A DNA stretch of 64,000 nucleotides from Isurus oxyrinchus (lineage: Eukaryota), in NCBI GenBank assembly GCA_026770705.1, contig JANJGN010000025.1, positions 28,954,001 through 29,018,000 of the forward strand, read 5' to 3'. The notes under the pieces are model-generated. The model searched no databases. It saw only the letters and a list, made by a program, of their open reading frames with translations, and was not told the origin of the DNA. The position numbers and the translations under genes are program-made. Numbering within the stretch: the first letter of the stretch is position 1; each line of letters begins with the position of its first letter. Below are positions 14,706 to 53,250 of this stretch, piece after piece.

Positions 14706-17606
14706 CAGTGAAAAACAGCATTATCCTTCCGTTTATATAACAGACTGGAATTGTGTTCATTTTATCTTGTAGTGTTGGCCATGTCGATGCATTTGCTTCC
14801 ATTATTTTCTGCCATTGGTTGTGCACCATTTCTTTATCGACAGAAATGACAGCCTTTCCTATTTAGGTACGTGATGTGAATAATGGCAACCACATGAATG
14901 GTCACATGCATACAGTCAGTAATGCCTTTATCTAGGGGAAGGTTTAGTAACACTAATTTTTCTGCTGCTTATGGCTACTGATTAAGTTTATGTCAGCAGG
15001 TAAAAGCATTATAAAACTAAGCTTCAGTTAGCTCCTTAATGGAGTGAAGGATGGTAAGGGGCCGGAATCTTATAGGGAAGTGGAAGGAATAAAAGTTGAG
15101 CAGTATGGATGGTAAGTTGTCCCTGTACATCTTTCATGAAGCAGATTGCAAAAGCTTTCCTTTCCCTCATCATGCACTATTACCACTTTATGTCCACTAA
15201 TGGGCTTTTTTGCTATACAAGTGCTACCTGGGGGTAGCTTCTACACCTTACAGGCTGTGATGTTCTCCTGCTCTAGTTGCACTATCAGATAACTGGCAAT
15301 AAATGCTGCTCTCATTATGAGGCTGAAAACGCCAATGTAAGATGTACTTCAGGTGCTATAGTGATACTTCAAAGTCTTGCCCTTTGTTCAATTCACTATC
15401 ACCAATTATGAGCTAGAGTCCAGAACTTGTTTGTCATTTGTATCCCCTCCCTCATACTTCAGTGAGAGATTGCTCTTGATTGGCCTTTTCCATGCCCTTA
15501 ATAAGCCTTAAGAAGCAAAAAAGGCTTTCAATGAACATGTTTCTGGATGGCAGAATGACTCAGAATTGCTGTGTGAATGGCTAAAGAGTCTATCACTGAC
15601 ATCTATTGTTTGTTCACATGCACACTTTTTCATCAAAATTAACACACTGAGGATTTCTTGCATTGAATGTTCCAAACAAATGGACCTAATATTTCTTGAG
15701 GAAAACTGACAGTGCAGACCCATCCACTGATGAAAGAGCCTGAGTTACTTGTTACTTTCTCGGTGGTGTGATTATAAAGATGTCTTCTCTTTAGATCAAT
15801 ACTATCTGTGGACATTTGTATCCCCTCCCTCATACTTCGGTGAAATCAATACTATCTGTGCATCAGCCAGCCAGCTAAAGAATCCTCTTAAAGTCATCAC
15901 ACATAAAATTGCAGCTTAAATCTGGAAGGTTCTAAAGTTTATCTGCAATCATTGAGGTGTGAGACATTTGGTCTACTATTAGGCAGCCAAGCTATGCATG
16001 CACTGGGACCACTGAGGCCCAAGGGAAGTGGCAGGTCAACTATAAATTAAAAGAGAAAACAGTATTTTAATATTTAGGTGGTAATTGTTTAAACTTAGGC
16101 TATTACCAGCCATGTAATTGAACTATTCAACCCATTGGAGGTTTCCTACCTAATGTACTTTTGAGCCCATAGAGGTTTTGTCAGTTCTGCACTGCACGGT
16201 CAGACTCAGTCATCCTCTGGTACAGTACAATCTGGATAGATGAATATCATAGTCAGTCATAAACCTTTTCAAACAGACAATTTCATTGCATGATTCCCAT
16301 TTACTGCCATTTCAGATGAGTGTTAATCCAAACAGTCATCATCCAACAATTTATGTGATCATGCACTTGTAAGTGTTTAACTGGGCTGTTGCATTAGTAG
16401 AAAGAGAACATTGTAAAATTGCTTCATCAGGATTCAGCAGAGTTAAAAGTCTTAATCGTATTGTCTTTCCTCCATCACAATGTAACATTAGCACAAAGGT
16501 TTGCAGTGTTGACACAATACATAGTGAATGAACCATCTAAAATTCCCCTATCAGTGTTTGTGCCTACCTGAGTAATGGGCCATCCTTATTATAGAAGTGA
16601 TGTGCCACCTTGTACAGCAAAGCTTTATAGGGAATTTAAAACAAAGTTTGCAGATCTAAAGAGGAACGTTAACTCTTCTATGCTGCGAAAGGAATTTATT
16701 CCTGGCCACACAGATGCTGAAAGCTGGTTGGAAATGCATTTAAATTTGGCAATAGTTATTACTTCACTGGTGTTGATCATGGCGTGCTGCTATTAAATAG
16801 AATGGAATTGTGCACATGATGTATAGAATTGCAAGATTTTAATTTAGCTCAATATGTAACTTTGGCTGCACACCTGGCTTCAGTTATTGTTATACTACAT
16901 AAACTGTAACTATTATGAAAAAATTTATTTGTCAATGTAAGGAGAATGTTAATGAAGCTTACATAGAAAATATAATGCTTTTTCAGAGATGTGAATTATA
17001 TCAATGTGAGGCCTCCAAAGTGTAGGAGCAATAATGGCAGTGTTTGATTTTTCCACCTATTTTATCCTTTCCACCATTGAGGGTGTGATAAACTCTGGGT
17101 GCAAATGTATAGATGTTGCCAGTCTTCTGGTAATTTGCCTACCATTTTTCACGTGTGGAACTAGTCAATCAGTGTCAACCAAGTTACAATGAAGGTCATC
17201 ATGGGATAAATTTCATTAGTCATTGCAAAATCATGGAGCCTTGTTTGACAAGGGTGGAGGCATTGATCCCAACACACAATTTCCTCCAGCTATTGAAAAA
17301 TTGGGAGAACCACCAATTAGACGGACCAAAATGTATGATTGTGCAATGTTTCCTTCAGCAGAGTGAAGTGCAGCAGTAAGAGAGCTAAGCCACACTTTTC
17401 ACCCTTACAGCAATTTTGGTGTTGTACTTTCATTGCATACTGCTTTGGTCACCCTGTACACAGAAGACAAGCAAGCACTGAAAGGATACAAAGAAAAGCA
17501 ATAAGAATGATTTCATGATGAAGATTCTTTAAAAAAAATTCTATTTACAGAAAAAAAATATTTAAAAGAGACATTGCTGAAATATGTAAATATATAATGT
17601 AGTAGG

Positions 17607-17936
17607 TGTTGTATTTTCACAGCTGAGCATTATGTTGTGTTATGTGTTCGCTCCAGCTGTGGTGTCTCAATGATGAGATCTTGAGACCTGTATGTTTAAA
17701 CATGAACCATTTATTGTTAATCTTTAACTATTTACAGATCCCAGTTTACTATCATGCATGGTGTTGCTGCCTCTATGCAGGCTGCTTCCAGAGCGTTCTC
17801 TCTAGACTGTTCTGAGCCTATTACCATGTGACTCTATGTATCATACCGTGGGGCGTGCCATTCTCCAGTCCCACATTAACCCTTGCACTGCTAAGCACCT
17901 TTACATTACAATGGCATTCAGGCACATAATACAGCA
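17607..17936 (-). repeat. 3' LTR
   Basis: Shares long blocks with 22091-22389, e.g. atgaaccatttattgttaatctttaactat and agcacctttacattacaatggcat; AATAAA on the minus strand. Confidence 0.9.
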
Positions 17937-18529
17937 ACCCCTTTCTTCTCCAAAGGAAACTTTCCTCCCTTCCAATGGAGTATTCCAGTACAATTTTGAC
18001 TTTCTATCCCTTCACCCCCACTGTAAATCTCAGACATTACAAATTATGACGGCCTTGAGGCTTGATGGTTCTTCCACATCTCAGTTTGTCATGTTTGGTG
18101 GAATGGCAGTAGTACTCTGTGTTTCTAGTACTTGGTTATGTCCATTTGATTCGCTTTTTGCACTCCGAGTTGCATTTCTCTTTTTTAGCAACCTGTCTGC
18201 TTTTTTCGGACACTGTGGGTTTGTCCTGTTCCTTCCACAAGGAATGTGCACTCCGTTCATTCCTAGAGTGGACTGGAATTTTTTTTTTTCAATGTGTCTG
18301 CCATGTTCTTACTGGATGTATATGTTTCACAAATGGAATCTTCATTTCCACGTGTTTCACAGTTTCAGCCAAACACTTGTTTGCTGTTTTATTTTTTAAA
18401 CCGTTTTGCAAACTTATGAATCTCATCATTCAGCTCAATGGTTCTCATTATGTTGCAGACGCCCAGTGCTCTTTCTTCTTCCGGTTTCTTATACTTCAGT
18501 GTCGGATTCACATTTCCTGATCTTATTTC

Positions 18530-19171
18530 TGTCTTTTCTTTCTCTGACTGTAACTTAGGAAGTTCTACGGCTTTTTCTTTTAACGCCTCTTCATTTTCAT
18601 TCAACTGCTTCTTCAGCTTGTCAGTCGGTTTCTTGCAGCTCTCGGCTTCACCCTAGAATATGGAACGTTCCTGAGTCTTCTCTGCCAGCTGGTTCTTCAG
18701 TTTGCTCAGAGTGATGTTAAATTCATTTTCCTTAACTTTGTAATTATCCAGAGGTACAGATTTTTGTCCTAAGGGATTCTTATAACATATGAAGATTCTT
18801 CAGCAGGTTTCCTTTTCTTTGCAAGACTCACTTGCTTCATCTTGAACTTTCCTGTAATTCGGTAGAGTCTCCTTGAGTTTCTTTTGTTGTGCCTCCATTC
18901 TACCGTTTAAGACAATCTTCACTTCTTCGTGTTGCTGAATGGGTATGCATTCCTTTTGCATTTGATCTTGAAGGTTAGTCAGCAGTTCTTATAATTGTTT
19001 ATTTTCTTGTTGACCTCTTAGCAACTCAATCTGGGCTTCAGTGCATCATTTCATTGCTACTGATAATTCCAACATAGCTTTTTCTGAAGTAATGTTCAAC
19101 GTCCTTTTTAGCTCCTCGTGTTTTTACATGGCTACACATTGATTCTTCAAGGAGTTTTTCAGGGTTGCAAC
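18530..19171 (-). pseudogene. UACA-like coiled-coil fragment, distal part (stops and frameshifts)
   Basis: Manual translation: LKNSLKNQCVAM*KHEELKRTLN..QMQKECIPIQQHEE..TLPNYRKVQDE..VPLDNYKVKENEFNITLSKLKNQLAEKTQ..DKLKKQL. Collinear with human UACA as recalled (NQYVPVKTHEEVKMTLN..ILANYRKGQEE..FKATEKELKDQLSEQTQ..DKLKKEI). Confidence 0.75.
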
Positions 19172-20590
19172 TTTTTTTTATTATTCATTCATGAGATGCG
19201 GGCGTTGCTGACTAGGCCAGCATTTATTGCCTAACACTAATTGTCCTTGAGAAGGTGGTAGTGAGCTGCCCTCTTGAATCGCTGCAGTCCATGTGGTGTA
19301 GGCGCATCTACAGAGTTCCAGGATTTTGACCCAGTTGAAGCAAAGGAATGGCGATATTATTTCCAAGTCATGTTGGTGGGTGTCTCGGAAGGGAAATTCC
19401 AGCTGGTGGTGTTCCCATGTGTCTGCTGCCCTTGTCCTTCTAGGTCATAGCAGTTGTGGGTTTGGAAGGTGATGTTTTAGGAGCTTTGTTGACTTTCTGC
19501 AGTGTGTCTTGTAGATGGTACACATTGCTGCCATTGTGCAATGGTGGTGGAGGCAGTGAATGTTTGTGGATGGGGTGCCAATCAAGCAGGCGGCTTAGAC
19601 CTGAATGGTGTCAAGCTTCTTGAGTGTTGTTAGAGCTGCATTCATCCAGGCAAATGGCAGTGTAGATGGTGGACAGGCTTTGGGGAGTCAGGAGGCAAGT
19701 TATTTACTGCAGGATTCCCAGCCGCTGACTTGGTCTTGTAGCCACAGTATTTATATGGCTAGTCCAGTTCAGTTTCTGGTCAATGGTAACTGCCAGGATG
19801 TTGTTAGTGGGGGATTCAGCAATGGTAATACCATTGAATGTCAAGGGGCAATGGTTAGATTCTCTCTTGTTGGAGATGGTCATTGCCTGACACTTGTATG
19901 GTGTGAATATTACTTGCCACTTGTCAGCCCAAGCCAGGATATTGTCCACATCTTGCTGCATTTGGACATGGACTGCTTCAGTATCAGAGTAGCTGCGAAT
20001 GGAGCTGAAAATTGCACAAGCATCAGTGAACATCCTCACTTCTGACCTTATGATGGTCATTGATAACGCAGCTGAAGATGGTTGGGCCTAGGACACTACC
20101 CTGATGTACGCCTCTGGTGATGTCCTGGATTGTGATGATTGATCTCTAACAACCACAACCATCTTCATTTATGATAAGTATGACTCAAACCAGTGGAGAG
20201 TTTTCTCCATGATTCCCATTGGCTCCAGTTTTGCTGGGGCTGCTTGAAGCCCCACACAGTCAAATGCTGCCTTGATGTCAAGGGCAGTTCTCTCACCTTA
20301 CCTCTGGATTTCAGCTGTTTCATCCATGTTTGAACCAAGGCTGTAATGAGGTCAGGAACTGAGTGGCCCTAGCGGAACCCAAACTGGGCGTCAGTGAGCA
20401 GGTTATTGCTAAGCAAGTGCCGCTTGATAGCACTACTGATGACCCCTTCCGGCACTTTTCTGATGATTTAGAGTAGAGCATTTGGCTGGGTTGGATTTGT
20501 CCTGCTTTTTGTGTACAGAACATACCTGGGCAATTTTCCACATTTCTGGATAGATGCCATGTTATAGTTCTATCAGAACAGCTTGGCTAG
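19172..20590 (-). mobile_element. 5'-truncated CR1/L2-group LINE inserted into the LTR element
   Basis: RT fragments LDIKAAFD, IRSEVRMFTD, WADKWQV and the family 3' tail with an A-rich end at 19172-19180; homologous to 29590-31500. Confidence 0.9.
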
Positions 20591-20900
20591 GGACAGGGGC
20601 CTTTTCTGCCTCCTGCTTTGCCTGGCTGTGCATCTGGTTGAGGTTTCCCAGCTCCTGCTTTGATTTGCCAGCTGTGGAATCGAGGGTCATTATTTCCTTC
20701 TGGTACCTTGGTCTCGTCTCTGAAATTTGATTGTTCAGATCTCAAACAGCTTAGTTCATTGAAGACTTCAGTTGACATGCATTTTCAGGGGCATACACTC
20801 AGCTTGAATCTTGCGCCTCAAATCTTCCTGTTCAGCTGTGATGTGAACGTTTCCTGTAGAACAGCTTCATTTACTTTTTACACATTTGCTTCTTTTGAGT
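20591..20900 (-). pseudogene. UACA-like coiled-coil fragment, proximal part
   Basis: Manual translation: RRKIQAECMPLK...YQKEIMTLDSTAGKSKQELGNLNQMHSQAKQEAEK, matching the UACA segment (HEKEIIALKSNIVELKKQLSEL) that directly precedes the distal part. Confidence 0.6.
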
Positions 20901-21730
20901 TACCTCAGATAGCCATCTGCTCACCCCATACAGCCATCTGCCTCCCTCGCTCTGGGTTCTTTTGGCTCCCTCTCTCTCTGGGGTTTTCTGCTGCCCCCAT
21001 GCTGGAGTCTTTTACTGCCTCGCTCTGGGGTCTTTTGTTTCCCTTTCACTGCGGTCTCTGCTAATTTTCTGTCCAGCGACTTTGTAAGAGACTTGTTGCT
21101 GGGGAGATTTTTGGTTCCTCAACTTTGAAAAAAAAAACTTTGGAGGTGTTGTATTTTGCAACAAATAGATCAATCCAGGTACAGAATGTTCCAGCTATTC
21201 TTACTGCACTGCACCGTGCTTGAGGCTTGGCTATCACTTACTTAGGGACAAAATCTGCTCTCCACATTTTAAAATATGCATGTCTGTAGCCATTTCCTTT
21301 TCGTTTAGAGCGCTTTTAAAACTAAGATTTCAGCATTGCCAAAAATGCTTGGGAGGGTTGTACTCACGGTCTGTGTTTTAACTCTGAGGAACTTCTAAAA
21401 CAGCAGCAATTTGTTCCTCAGTACAAGAGGCTAGGGACCCAATTGGAAAAGGTTCCCTTTCCCTTAAACTCTGCAGGCTTTTTACTTTTTTAAACTGTAC
21501 TCTGCAGGTTTCTCTCTTCATTCTGCCAGCCAATTTTTATTTAACTTTTTTTAACTTCGGCCCAGCCACCATGTGTTATGGTGCGGCTATTGACTCCCTC
21601 TGTTGCTCTCTTTCAGCTGCCCTCTGGATGCTGAGCCCTAGGACTGCCACTTACTCTAAAATGTAAGCACAGCTTCTTTTTGGTATTTTTACTCACCATC
21701 TCATATACTGCCCAGGTCCTTTGACTCTGT

Positions 21731-21895
21731 GTTACTCAGGCTCTGCAATTTCCTGTAGTGTTGCTCACCTTACTTGTGATCTGAGCACTTTTTTTGCTCT
21801 ACATCACTCAGGAGTTGTGCAATTTTTATAGTTGTGCTCACCCGTCCTTGTGATTTAATCAAGTTATTTTATTCTTTACTTGCGTCACTCAGGGG
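21731..21895. repeat. Degenerate tandem repeat (~75-80 bp, about 2.2 copies) inside the LTR element
   Basis: actcagg..tgcaattt..tgctcacc..cttgtgat recurs at ~21734 and ~21806, with a third start at ~21887. Confidence 0.6.
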
Positions 21896-22090
21896 TCTTG
21901 CATGGACTTCCACTCACTCTGGTGGATTCCTCAACTTTTCAGTCTGTAGTGAAGCTTCTTCAACTGTTTCTTCTTAGGCACACATCTCCCTGGTTTGGCT
22001 TCAGCTGCTTTTAGTTTCTCATACCTTGGGATACTGTTCTGGGTTCATTATTTAAAATGTCACCTTTCATATCATCGCTACTGCTCACCA

Positions 22091-22389
22091 TGTTGCTTTA
22101 TCACTGCTGATACTGTATTATTGTGCACAGTGATCCCTCAATGCTGAGGTCTTGAGGCTTGGATGTTTAAATATGAACCATTTATTGTTAATCTTTAACT
22201 ATTACAGAGCCCAGGCTACTGTCATGCATGCAGGCTGCTTCCAGAGTATTCTCTCGACTGTTCTGTGAGTCTATTACCATGTGACTCTTTGCATCGTACC
22301 ATATGCAGTGCTAGTCTCCAGTCCCATGTTGACCCTTGCTCTGCTGAGCACCTTTACATTACAATGGCATACAGGCACATACTACAAAA
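22091..22389 (-). repeat. 5' LTR
   Basis: Direct repeat of 17607-17936; adjacent PBS resembles the tRNA-iMet complement TGGTAGCAGAGGATG with indels. Confidence 0.9.
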
Positions 22390-22744
22390 GTAGGAAGCAA
22401 TAATTTGAAAGACAAAAACAAAGACAATGAGCTGAATTTTCTGCTCTGAAGTCTAAGTTCGTTGGCAGGTATGGAAATGCAAGTGATTCCCACAGGGGGA
22501 TGGGATGGCTGAATACGTGTGAGCTGGTGCTGTTCAGCACTTATGCACTTGTGCGGAACATGGCAAATCTCATGGTGGGTGCCATAGTTAAAGGGCACCC
22601 AGACAGCCTGCCTCTCTTCCGCCCCTACCCTCCAACCCACCTGCCCTGTCACCTTTGCCTGCCTCCCAGGTCCAGCCTCTGCTCCACCCTTCCACCCTAT
22701 CCCCCATCCAGCCTTTGCACAGCATGTGCTACCGGTGCCCTTTT

Positions 22745-22920
22745 CCTTCATTCATGGGAGGCGGGTTTTGCTGGCTGAGACAGCATTTATCCCTAGTTGC
22801 ACTTAAGAAGGTGGTAGTGAGCTGCCTTCTTGAACCGCTGCAGTTCATGTGGTACACCCAGAATGCTGATTTTGACCCAGTGACAGTGAAGGAAAGGCCA
22901 TATATTTATGCTGGTGCCTA
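22745..22920 (-). mobile_element. LINE 3' tail fragment
   Basis: PHELQRFKKAAHYHLLK motif plus family tail. Confidence 0.75.
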
Positions 22921-22959
22921 GGTCGGGTCGTCCGGTTTCTTTCCTTTTTTGAGACCTTC

Positions 22960-23600
22960 TGGCGATTTGATTCAACTGAGTGGTTTGCTAGGCCATTTCA
23001 GAGAGCATTTAAGAAGCAATCACATTGCTGTGCATCTGGAGTAACTTTTTTTTATACATTCACAGCATGCGGGCTTCGGCTCGCTGGGCCAGCATTTGTT
23101 GCCCATCCCTAGTTGCCCTTGAGAAGGTGGTGGTGAGCTGCCTTCGTGAACCGCTGCAGTCCATGTGGTGTAGGCACATCCACAGTGCTGTTAGGAAGGG
23201 AGATCCAGGATTTTGACCCAGCGATGTGAAGGAACGGCAATATATTTCCAAGTCAGGATGGTGAGTGACTTGGAGGGGAACTTTGAGGTGGTGGTGTTCC
23301 CATGTATCTGCTGCCCTTGTTCTTCTAGATGATAGTGGTCATGGGTTTGGAAGGTGTAGGCTGGACCAGGTAAGGGTAACAGATTTCCTTTTCTAAAGGG
23401 CAATAGTAAACTGGATGGGTTTTTACAACAATCAACAATGGTTTCATGATTATCATTAGACTTTTAATTACAGATTTTTATTGAATTCAAATTCCACAAT
23501 CTGCCATGCTGGGATTTGAACCTGGGTCCCCAGAGCATTACCCTAAGTCTCTGGATTACTAATCCAGCAAAAAAAACCCCACTAAACCATCACCTCCCCT
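22960..23600 (-). mobile_element. tRNA-derived SINE (probably MetaSINE-type core) split by a LINE tail at ~23046-23357
   Basis: Minus strand has A box tggtttagtgg and B box ggttcaaatcc; the core ..ggaaatctgttacccttacctggtccagcctaca continues after the insert as ..actccagatgcacagcaatgtgattg..aaatggcctagcaaaccactcagtt. Confidence 0.75.
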
Positions 23601-23619
23601 AAATGAGTGAAGTTATGAG

Positions 23620-23961
23620 CATGTCTACTGACCTCAAAGTCATGGAAGACGTGAAGCTCGCCAAGTGCATGTGGTGAAAGTGAACGTTCTAGCTTCCTGC
23701 TGGTGGGTAACTTAATTTGTAGGGGGAACCTAATTCCAATGACGTGGCCTTTTAATGAGCATGCATGACATGCTATTGCATGCAAAAGGGCTTCCTGACA
23801 TTGTTCGTCGAGAAGCTTGACCCGTCCTTAACCTGCCTTTAAAGTCCCAAGAACAGAATTCCAGCAGTGCATCCCGACGTTGGGAAACTGATTTTTGGCC
23901 TCACGCCAAAGTAATTTCACCTATGCATTCCGCTGCTGGCGGGACCGGAAGATTCTGCCCA
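23620..23961. mobile_element. Harbinger-type MITE fragment
   Basis: Ends in GGAAGATTCTGCCC, the same TIR as 3232. Confidence 0.55.
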
Positions 23962-23967
23962 ATGAAT

Positions 23968-24420
23968 CTATACAAGACACTAGTTAGGCTACAGTTGGAA
24001 TGCTGCTTGCAGTTTTGAGCATCCCGTTATCAAAAACATGTAAGGGCAATAAAAAAAAGGTGAAATGCAGATACACTTGAATGACACCAAGGATGAAAAG
24101 ATATTGTTGTTATGTGAGACATACAAATCTGTAACTTTATTTATTGGAGCAGTAAAGATTAAGGAGGAATTGAGTAGAAGCTTTGAAATTTTAAAAAGGG
24201 TTTGAAATGAATAGAATGAAAATTCGGGCAGGTGACTGGTTCCACCAGACCCCCTGGCCAATGATTGGTGATATAGTTGGAGATACAAGTTCATCGAATG
24301 TGTTATAACTTTAGCAAAAAGCAAGGTGTGAAATATCAAAAACTGCATTACAAATGTACAAGATGACATTTGGTACCATAAAAATACTATAGGACAGAGC
24401 TGGATGTTCCCAACTGTTCT
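23968..24420 (+). mobile_element. Ancient CR1 3' fragment
   Basis: Starts YKTLVRLQLECCLQF, a decayed CR1 YKTLVRPHLEYCVQFW motif. Confidence 0.55.
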
Positions 24421-50390: not shown

Positions 50391-51465
50391 TGCGCCACCT
50401 TATCGGCACTGGGATAGCTCGAGGTCCTCATTTAGCCAGGCTGGTGGTGGCCTTAACACCGACGGCTGGCTTCGCTGCTCTAAGTAGCAAAGTCTAGGAT
50501 TTGTATTTGTGCCTGTCACTTTTTGAAAGGTTGGATCAAATGAAACTGTACCATTTACAGCAGAAAACAGCAGATGAATTATAGGTTAATTTAGCTTCCA
50601 TTTACTGCTCTAAATGGGGTAGAAGATTAGTACCGAATTCACGGTTTCTGATTTCAGCAAGATGAGTAGATCAGTTTTTTTTAGGCCAACAGCAATAGTA
50701 ATCCGCTAATGGCTTTTAATAGCTACAGTTTAAACATGCTTACAACAAAGTTACAATGTGTGAATTGCTCTGAGGTTCGACTTAATGGTGTCTGTACTTC
50801 CTATTGTGAAAGGAAAATCATCCAAAAAGTGTGTTAGAATCATTTTAGAAGTGTTATGTCTTGGAAAATGAAGGAAAAAGCACTTGTAGTACGTGGGGAG
50901 TGTTAGAATGGGAGAGCCGAAGAGAAGGTGATCCTTGTGTTCTTTAAGATTTAAAACTGCTTTTCCTGAATTATGAACGGAGAGCCATCAAAATAATCAC
51001 AGACTTTTATTTTCTGGATGTGTCACAGCAAACAAACCGATCTTAATTATGTACAGTATTCTTCAGTAAAAGCTAGCAACAGACTCAAAATGCTGAAGGC
51101 TTTAAGGCAGGAATGTCTTGTTAAAAAGTGAAACGATAACTGTCTGAGGGTTTCAGCCATTTCAAAAGAATTCATAGGGCGGGATCCCCTTCAACCCCCC
51201 CCCCCCCCCCCCCACCCGCCACTAAGTGTGGTGGTGGGCATGAAAATCAATGTTTTACTCACTGGCCGCAATGGCAGGCTCTCGCTTTGTATCGTCCGCT
51301 TCCAGCCTCATTAAATATGTACACAAGGGAAACATGCCAGATTGCTGGCGGGCGGTCTCTGTCCTGCCGAGAGCTCACCGATTCCTCACTCTAGGTGCCA
51401 TATTTAAAGTGCAGCCGCGCACAATGTTTTCAATGTCTGCAGTCCAGCACTGCTTCACTGAAGAC

Positions 51466-53250
51466 ATGGTCCTGAAAACCAAGAAGACAGCAGCCCCTAA
51501 ATTCAGTGATGTCTCACTGGAAAGCCTTCTCGACGCAGTTGCAGCCCTCCGCGATGTCCTCTACCGTCACTCTGGCTGCAGGCGGTCCAGCAAGCTAACC
51601 AATTCAGCTTGGGAGGCGGTAGCAGTGGTGCTCAGTGCCAACGCTGCACTGGAGAGGTCAAGCACCCAGTGCAGAAAGAGGATGAATGATTTCATCTGTA
51701 CCCCCAGGGTAAGTCAACCATCTCATCACTCTCAGCTCACACACTCACAAGCCCATCATTCACTGGCATCTCACTCACAGCCAGCACAAGGGACATCACC
51801 ACTCAGTCTCACACATACCCGCACATCTCCATCTGGTCTCATCTTCTCTGGAGATCACGTCCTCATCCCATCAATGGCTCTCCTCACCACCCACAAATGC
51901 CAGACATCCTTATCATCTTCCCTGTCATGCACCTTGTTCAGACTCTCTCCATCCGTCTTTATGCAGGAGAACATCGCACACAATTGCAGGGAGAGGTCCC
52001 AGATTGGCGGGGGGGGGGGCTGCTGGATTGCCAGAACTCAAGGCCCTTTCTCAGTTCGAAAACTGAGCCATTTTGCTGGCCAGAGAGGACGTGGACCATA
52101 CCTGTGGCAACTGTAGTGTCATCAACAAACACCCACGTGAGGATCCTGCACCAGCTCATCCCTCAGACAACCATGCTGTGAGTGCATTGACCTGTTTTAT
52201 AGCTGCCAATCATGAGCTAATTATCTCTACTTTCTTTCATAGGAACCTCAGGCAAGCACTCGACAGCCTCAACCAGCCTAACCCTTAGCTTAAGCCTGGA
52301 CAACGCTCTGGATGAGGATCCTGAGGACACCACATCAGAAGACCTGGCACAGCACTCAGCAACATCCTCCACCAGCACAGAGACACACACCTCAGAAGGA
52401 CCTAGTTCTAGATTCAGTGACATAATCTGGTGAGCACAGCACACAATCTGGTCCGCAGCTGACAGAGGCAGGGACACCTGAGGTTGCCGGCACTTGGAGG
52501 ACTGCTCCTCCAGTACTCTGCTGAGTCTGAGATGATAAGCCTCTGGACTCAGTCCTAAATCAGTTTCTGGAGCTGCAGTGACAATCACAGGAACATCAGG
52601 GAGGGATGTCAGCTGCACTCCTCAGATTGTAATGGACGATGGAGGAGTCCCTCCTCATTCAATCTGAGGTGATAGTGCCAGCATGCCAATGTACTGTGGT
52701 CAACACTAGCAGGGTGGCAACTGCCATGGAGACCATGGTCCAGGGCATCAGGCCTGCACTGGTGCAGAAGACGACCTCCATTGCTGTAGCTGTTGGTGGC
52801 ATCCATCAGTGGCCATGCGAGAGGAGAGGGGGCTGTGCACTGAGATCTGACTCCATCTACCCCTTCTCCTCAAGGAGTCAGCCAGCGGCCCTCAGGCACC
52901 CATTAGGAGAACCAGCAGATGGACACCCTGGGACTATCCACCCAGGTGACTCCAGGAGTATCCAGCTAATCCTAATCTCCTCTCCTATGACCCCATCATC
53001 TCCAGCTCCACAGGCCGAGGAGGGTGAACCTGCCCCACAGAAGGAGACCCAAGGCAGGCTGGGGCCCTCCAATTCTCGGCCCTCCAGAGGATGTCTCCCA
53101 AAGTCATCAGAGACAACAGGACATAACAGTCAGCAGGCTGCCTCCACCTCTGCTGTGGATGTCAGGGATGCACCCAGACATAGCAGTAGAGTTAGGAAAG
53201 CAAAAAAAAATCTAGGACCCAACGGGGGCATGGGTGTTCACAACATGTAG
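51466..53250 (+). pseudogene. Harbinger Myb/SANT-like DNA-binding protein, three exons (51466-51708, 51967-~52177, ~52243-53250), decayed
   Basis: AAPKFSDVSLESLLDAV..AWEAVAVVLSA..RSSTQCRKRMNDF; donor AGG|gtaagt at 51709; acceptor atgcag|ENIAHNCRERSQIGGG; second intron gtgagt..tttcatag; frameshifts and stops downstream. Confidence 0.85.

Follow-up and report, generated by a model that had tools for sequence, protein, structure and literature searches.

A non-autonomous LTR retrotransposon family of sharks that carries parts of UACA and TPR in one reading frame

How does a retroelement without a polymerase come to carry host coding sequence, and why is that sequence kept? The question is raised by a 64,000-nucleotide stretch of the genome of the shark Isurus oxyrinchus (contig JANJGN010000025.1, positions 28,954,001 to 29,018,000; hereafter the window), in which a minus-strand long terminal repeat (LTR) element, interrupted by a long interspersed nuclear element (LINE), occupies positions 17607-22389 (Table 1). 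The original prediction for this locus described paired LTRs, a GTAGG target-site duplication, a primer-binding site and a polypurine tract around an interior that lacks reverse transcriptase (RT), RNase H and integrase. All of these features are present: 43 of 294 sites differ between the two LTRs, a primer-site-like stretch and a purine tract lie at the expected borders, and a Pfam scan of five window frames detected neither RT nor RNase H nor integrase in the element. In this copy the 5' LTR no longer has the TG at its outer end. The element is a dead member of a shark family of non-autonomous LTR retrotransposons with a high copy number.

The first donor was correctly named. About 315 codons (~950 nt) of the element, in element sense, align to a single large exon of UACA in the same genome at 77-78% DNA identity, and the four pieces in the window are collinear with this exon; about 300 such codons had been predicted. 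The host exon (2.7 kb) encodes aa 402-1310 and is 84% identical to Mustelus UACA. The main frame of the window element, with X at stops, matched two of 2,944 candidate proteins, both shark UACA-like (55% and 49%), the identity to Mustelus UACA being 55% across 202 amino acids with a pairwise E of 7e-62. A generic coiled coil or a gag protein as the source, the alternative that had been named together with the prediction, is ruled out: the best matches are UACA. The prediction had left the choice between UACA and one of its paralogues, RAI14 or ANKRD24; judged by its match to the located host exon, in a comparison confined to UACA, the donor is UACA itself. The loss of introns cannot be read from this cargo because the piece lies inside a single exon. 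Most copies share the same host start and end positions of the UACA piece. By its residue patterns the capture postdates the divergence from Heptranchias (14 columns versus 3), and the columns that bear on the Mustelus split (5, 2 and 3) do not settle the side. In the window copy the UACA piece is split by the LINE fragment, which shows a weak RVT_1 match and has nine further pieces in the window. One subfamily (L063, L064, L069, L077, L157, L159) has the UACA 3' end ahead of the UACA 5' part, and copy L067 carries one UACA part twice; these rearranged and doubled parts suggest an old tandem duplication of the cargo.

A second captured gene is not part of the original prediction. Downstream of UACA, the longer subfamilies contain a stretch that matches the Pfam family Nucleoprot-TPR (E 3e-19) and eight TPR proteins, seven of them from sharks and a ray at 56-60%; a PDB sequence search with this piece gave weak keratin-type matches only. 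The host TPR gene was located and its first 12 exons were mapped, and the host protein is identical to the Cetorhinus record across 465 residues. The TPR piece of the element corresponds to ~aa 97-446 and crosses six exon junctions at which introns of 755-8,476 nt are absent, which shows that TPR was taken from a spliced mRNA; 58 of 63 junction spans in TPR copies are free of gaps. The window copy retains 68 nt of it (79% DNA identity, E 3e-13). We have next to no doubt that both captures are real. On either side of UACA stand linkers that resemble coiled coils. No donor for them was found by Atlas (best 0.90, unnamed, low recognition) or by comparison with UACA and TPR, and a profile search of 8,000 scored candidates of 318-2000 aa gave one match, itself derived from the family.

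Upstream of UACA the longer subfamilies carry an 85-residue helical domain. Its nearest Atlas clusters are DUF7041 (0.93, 145 shared features) and Retrotrans_gag (0.90), with ten of the ten best in one clan. Pfam gave no match in 14 members, and a fold search with a model of the domain (pLDDT 63) reached a best Z of 7.7, with no Foldseek match at E 0.001. From its Atlas neighbours the domain is likely to be the remnant of a Gag N-terminus. It was detected in 11 of 26 long subfamily A loci and had no match in the window copy, an absence that is likewise not part of the original prediction. The picture of an element whose pol core was replaced by UACA holds for the loss of pol, but most of gag was replaced too, and TPR was captured as well.

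The supposition of a family mobilised together with the fragment is borne out. The window piece gave 3,460 first-look candidates in the genome, and two 18-mers of the family occur at 448 and 242 exact sites (controls 0). Their overlap on three chromosomes (16 of 44) leads to ~1,230 copies, which is probably a floor; the family likely exceeds a thousand copies. UACA is present in 28 of 30 loci that were found via the gag remnant alone. Repeats of 5 bp (at most one mismatch) flank 10 of the 19 copies with usable ends, all of them different, where 2.3 were expected, and the family consists of many independent insertions. A one-off insertion is ruled out by the many further copies that carry the cargo. 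The cargo-bearing copies examined have kept LTRs and cis signals, lack the pol core and were dispersed many times, as is typical of non-autonomous elements. The rough median divergence of LTR pairs is 0.18 (19 copies), in a set in which several of 25 pairs overran the LTR or were other repeats. Predicted proteins of Cetorhinus and Scyliorhinus torazame extend across the UACA-linker and the linker-TPR junction of the family and agree with its copies over their length; the family is thus found in lamniform and carcharhiniform sharks, and its presence in Scyliorhinus indicates that it is old. We consider it virtually certain that the family is real. Two near-identical copies (L068 and L070), 0.9 Mb apart on C3, are likely the result of a segmental duplication, and L070 was excluded from the counts.

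The predicted derivation of the family from Gypsy is supported indirectly. A tRNA primer site, a purine tract, 5-bp duplications and a gag-like N-terminus are shared with Gypsy elements (Metaviridae), and subfamily D has Gypsy RNase H and integrase; the group is presumably the one labelled K02A2.6/Mag-like. Unlike Gypsy elements, no cargo-bearing copy examined has a protease, an RT core or a complete gag. Copies in a better state have a primer site that fits the end of a tRNA, called Leu(TAG) at one of two loci and Trp at the other. The end motif of the long frame of the family, in the 3' tail, resembles what we take to be the C-terminus of Gypsy pol, and a similar frame ending is present in a Pfam-confirmed Gypsy pol. 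Subfamily D accounts for 7 of the 30 loci from the 18-mer search (L222-L227 and L229; loci L232, L233, L240, L241, L244, L255 and L256 are concerned). Its members are bounded by the LTRs of another Gypsy family, a full one, and hold tandem repeats plus a short remnant of UACA in place of the gag, protease and RT core of that family; the end of RT, RNase H and integrase are retained, in this order, and the LTR is shared with that family in 10 of 10 loci. This structure shows that the cargo has recombined with a Gypsy RNA at least once. The full-length Gypsy family itself (L262-L271) is large and decayed, has protease, RT, RNase H and integrase by Pfam and LTRs of ~255 bp, and is a candidate helper because it recombined with the cargo.

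Whether the copies hold an open frame, as the original prediction had proposed to check, was read from column counts per frame in 19 of 23 subfamily C and 19 of 38 subfamily A copies that were aligned. Subfamily C has no majority stop in one frame of ~640 codons, which opens at an ATG column (11 of 15) ahead of the gag remnant and runs through this remnant, linker, UACA, linker and TPR. In subfamily A ~560 codons are open save for one CpG-type column, and the stop stands shortly before the purine tract. The other two frames meet majority stops throughout in both subfamilies. All six stop-rich columns have the mix expected of recurrent CpG decay. No small indel is found in the majority of any subfamily, 333 of 401 per-copy indels shift the frame, and each of the eight shared deletions has a length divisible by three. 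On the family stem and the branch to subfamily A, 93 replacement changes were fixed; per-copy decay ratios predict 7.2 stops and 8.0 frameshifts for this number, and none was seen (P ~2e-7). The open frame is, in our judgement, real with high probability.

Constraint on the amino acids of the cargo is weak or absent, so that what selection preserved was most likely an open frame and not the encoded protein. Fixed replacement versus silent changes between subfamilies gave an odds ratio of 0.52-0.55 (p 0.01-0.02) with a first grouping that misplaced at least two copies; the tree-based repeat, which is the one to trust, is weaker (odds ratio 0.56-0.80, p 0.08-0.55). In the gag remnant, replacement changes are in excess between subfamily A and the rest (30.5 N versus 4.5 S, p 0.03), which reflects relaxed or positive selection or an alignment error. 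TPR is cut to ~40 codons in subfamily A and absent in D; the cargo has been shed piecemeal.

We propose, with a probability of roughly one half, that this is a non-autonomous family whose UACA and intronless TPR parts stand in one frame that would be kept open so that the element RNA stays translated and free of nonsense-mediated decay. UACA and TPR would have been brought in by template switching onto co-packaged mRNAs, as in the model of Tan et al. 2016 (PMC5131818). Coiled-coil mRNAs probably make preferred cargo, since most of the short sequences that they share lie in the same phase. A Gypsy helper would mobilise the element in trans, and among replicating RNAs selection may have favoured a frame that reaches almost to the 3' LTR. 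The predicted role of such a frame is to keep the RNA translated and thereby to spare it nonsense-mediated decay, whose avoidance is the simplest reason for a long frame. A literature search found no published case of an element frame kept for escape from nonsense-mediated decay. Several observations weigh against the proposal. An autonomous parent with these LTRs was not found in 60 integrase, 2 perfect primer-site and 10 full Gypsy loci, a small share of the 17,000-24,000 candidates: the window LTRs had no match in 30 rve loci or in the 10 full Gypsy loci, and 30 H2C2 loci gave no LTR match among their best matches to family copies. Short shared sequences alone yield 63-90% in-frame deletions, so that eight of eight has a chance of ~0.03-0.14 at typical values. 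The count of expected disruptions supposes that master lineages mutate as inserted copies do, and in the alignments of 19 of 38 and 19 of 23 copies hundreds of columns are weakly occupied. Raw linker lengths between anchors are too variable to set the frame (anchor-distance test), and the column count of subfamily D shows no continuity between its short UACA frame and its pol frame, which are offset.

Host TPR retains unspliced retroviral RNA, and the chimeric protein might itself help the element, with a Gag N-terminal domain on long coiled coils and the TPR piece as a decoy for host TPR. The open frame and the odds ratios for UACA and TPR codons, all below 1, would fit such a protein, and the captured TPR ends at ~aa 441-446, just short of L458 and M489, through which TPR, a regulator that limits the export of unspliced RNA, is anchored (PMC3258255; shark and human numbering are not aligned). 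A protein of this kind is nevertheless doubtful, since subfamily A has almost lost TPR and D lacks it, the signal of constraint loses significance once the groups are defined by the tree, and the gag remnant changes freely, is missed in most long A loci and is not found in the window copy. That an old shark lineage built a Gag-UACA-TPR decoy to pass its unspliced RNA through the nuclear basket, a cargo worth moving to a second Gypsy, would be a bolder form of this idea and is unlikely. The frame could also be that of a neutral passenger, open through mutation bias and few master generations. Short shared sequences that are 63-90% in frame, the weakness of the dN/dS tests and the finding that many young LTR retrocopies are already in frame when they arise (Tan et al. 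2016, PMC5131818) speak for it. Bias accounts for the phase of junctions but not for the absence of point stops and of indels of 1-2 nt, and ~15 disruptions were expected where none was seen; a neutral passenger is unlikely. Least probable of all, and very improbable in our view, is camouflage, in which sequence of needed host genes would make silencing by small RNAs costly to the host. It has been suggested for plant elements in a review (PMC13317346), and both donors are intact host genes; however, it predicts no open frame, and the copies are now ~20% from their donors.

The mechanism of capture is known; scale, age, a pair of coiled-coil donors that are both in frame, the kept frame along replicating lineages and the transfer to a second backbone set the shark family apart. 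In maize Bs1 the interior of an LTR element is a chimera of several host gene pieces that form a new open reading frame (ORF), re-copied after capture as in the shark family (PMC5131818, PMC13317346), but Bs1 has 1-5 copies (PMC5131818) whereas the shark family has ~1,200 in one genome, several subfamilies, both genes in frame and a distribution over two shark orders. LTR-mediated retroposition in metazoans likewise involves partial mRNAs, more than one donor, sense orientation, flanking LTR parts and secondary copying; the retrocopies described are young or few in copy number (Tan et al. 2016, PMC5131818), while the shark chimera is a long-lived major family with a kept frame and a second backbone. 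LTR elements of bdelloid rotifers also keep foreign coding sequence, there as extra ORFs beside gag and pol (PMC5408684), whereas in the shark coiled coils replace most of gag and pol. No description of such a shark family was found in the literature searched, a search that had Repbase, Dfam, subscription journals and supplements outside its scope, so that an unremarked entry in a repeat library is possible.

Most known examples of gene capture by LTR elements are few and either low in copy number or young. Here a chimera of two genes reached about a thousand copies and persisted beyond the divergence of two shark orders, and its many dead copies would preserve a record of selection for an open frame in an element unable to move alone. 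Why non-autonomous elements keep frames, for the survival of their RNA or for a protein, thus becomes testable. The family further accounts for erroneous gene models in the annotation of shark genomes (P0004, P0005, P0007, P0009, P0010, P0014, P0028). The automatic Cetorhinus model P0028 begins with ~75 residues of family linker, fused to an NAD(P)-binding domain, possibly through exonisation or as a false model.

Table 1 Features of the LTR element in the window, by window position
Feature	Position	Strand	Basis
Target-site duplication GTAGG, left	17602..17606	.	read directly
3' LTR	17607..17936	-	alignment to 22091-22389, Kimura two-parameter distance (K2P) 0.164
Polypurine tract	17937..17951	-	other copies with same purine run ahead of 3' LTR
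3' tail, holding end of the long frame of the family	17952..18325	-	similar ending in a Pfam-confirmed Gypsy pol
Captured TPR remnant, host exon 12, ~aa 418-440	18326..18393	-	79% DNA identity, E 3e-13
Weak TPR exon-10 remnant	near 18420-18437	-	
Coiled-coil-like linker common to family	18440..18553	-	no donor found
Captured UACA piece 4, aa ~1167-1188	18554..18617	-	78% to host exon
Captured UACA piece 3, aa ~831-1020, stop-broken	18609..19177	-	77% to host exon, E 9e-122
3' fragment of a LINE inserted later	19178..20590	-	other copies without it; RVT_1 E 0.085; multi-copy in window
Captured UACA piece 2, aa ~794-828	20602..20704	-	77% to host exon
Captured UACA piece 1, aa ~689-763	20696..20913	-	78% to host exon, E 1e-43
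Short tandem repeats, subfamily A type; gag remnant and linker here in other copies	20942..21057	-	
Leader, partly common to other subfamily A copies	21058..22072	-	
Primer-binding site, decayed; tRNA-Leu type in better-kept copies	22073..22090	-	
5' LTR	22091..22389	-	alignment to 3' LTR
Target-site duplication GTAGG, right	22390..22394	.	read directly

The left edge of the insertion (window 16800-17681) is bridged by run contigs with two organism labels, which show 10 and 15 differences over ~880 nt; the window insertion is thus common to at least one other labelled organism. Elsewhere in the window, positions 51244-52116 hold a frame of 290 aa whose match to a Myb/SANT-like domain (PF13873, E 3e-4) falls slightly short of the cut-off; it is probably the remnant of a Harbinger-type transposon.

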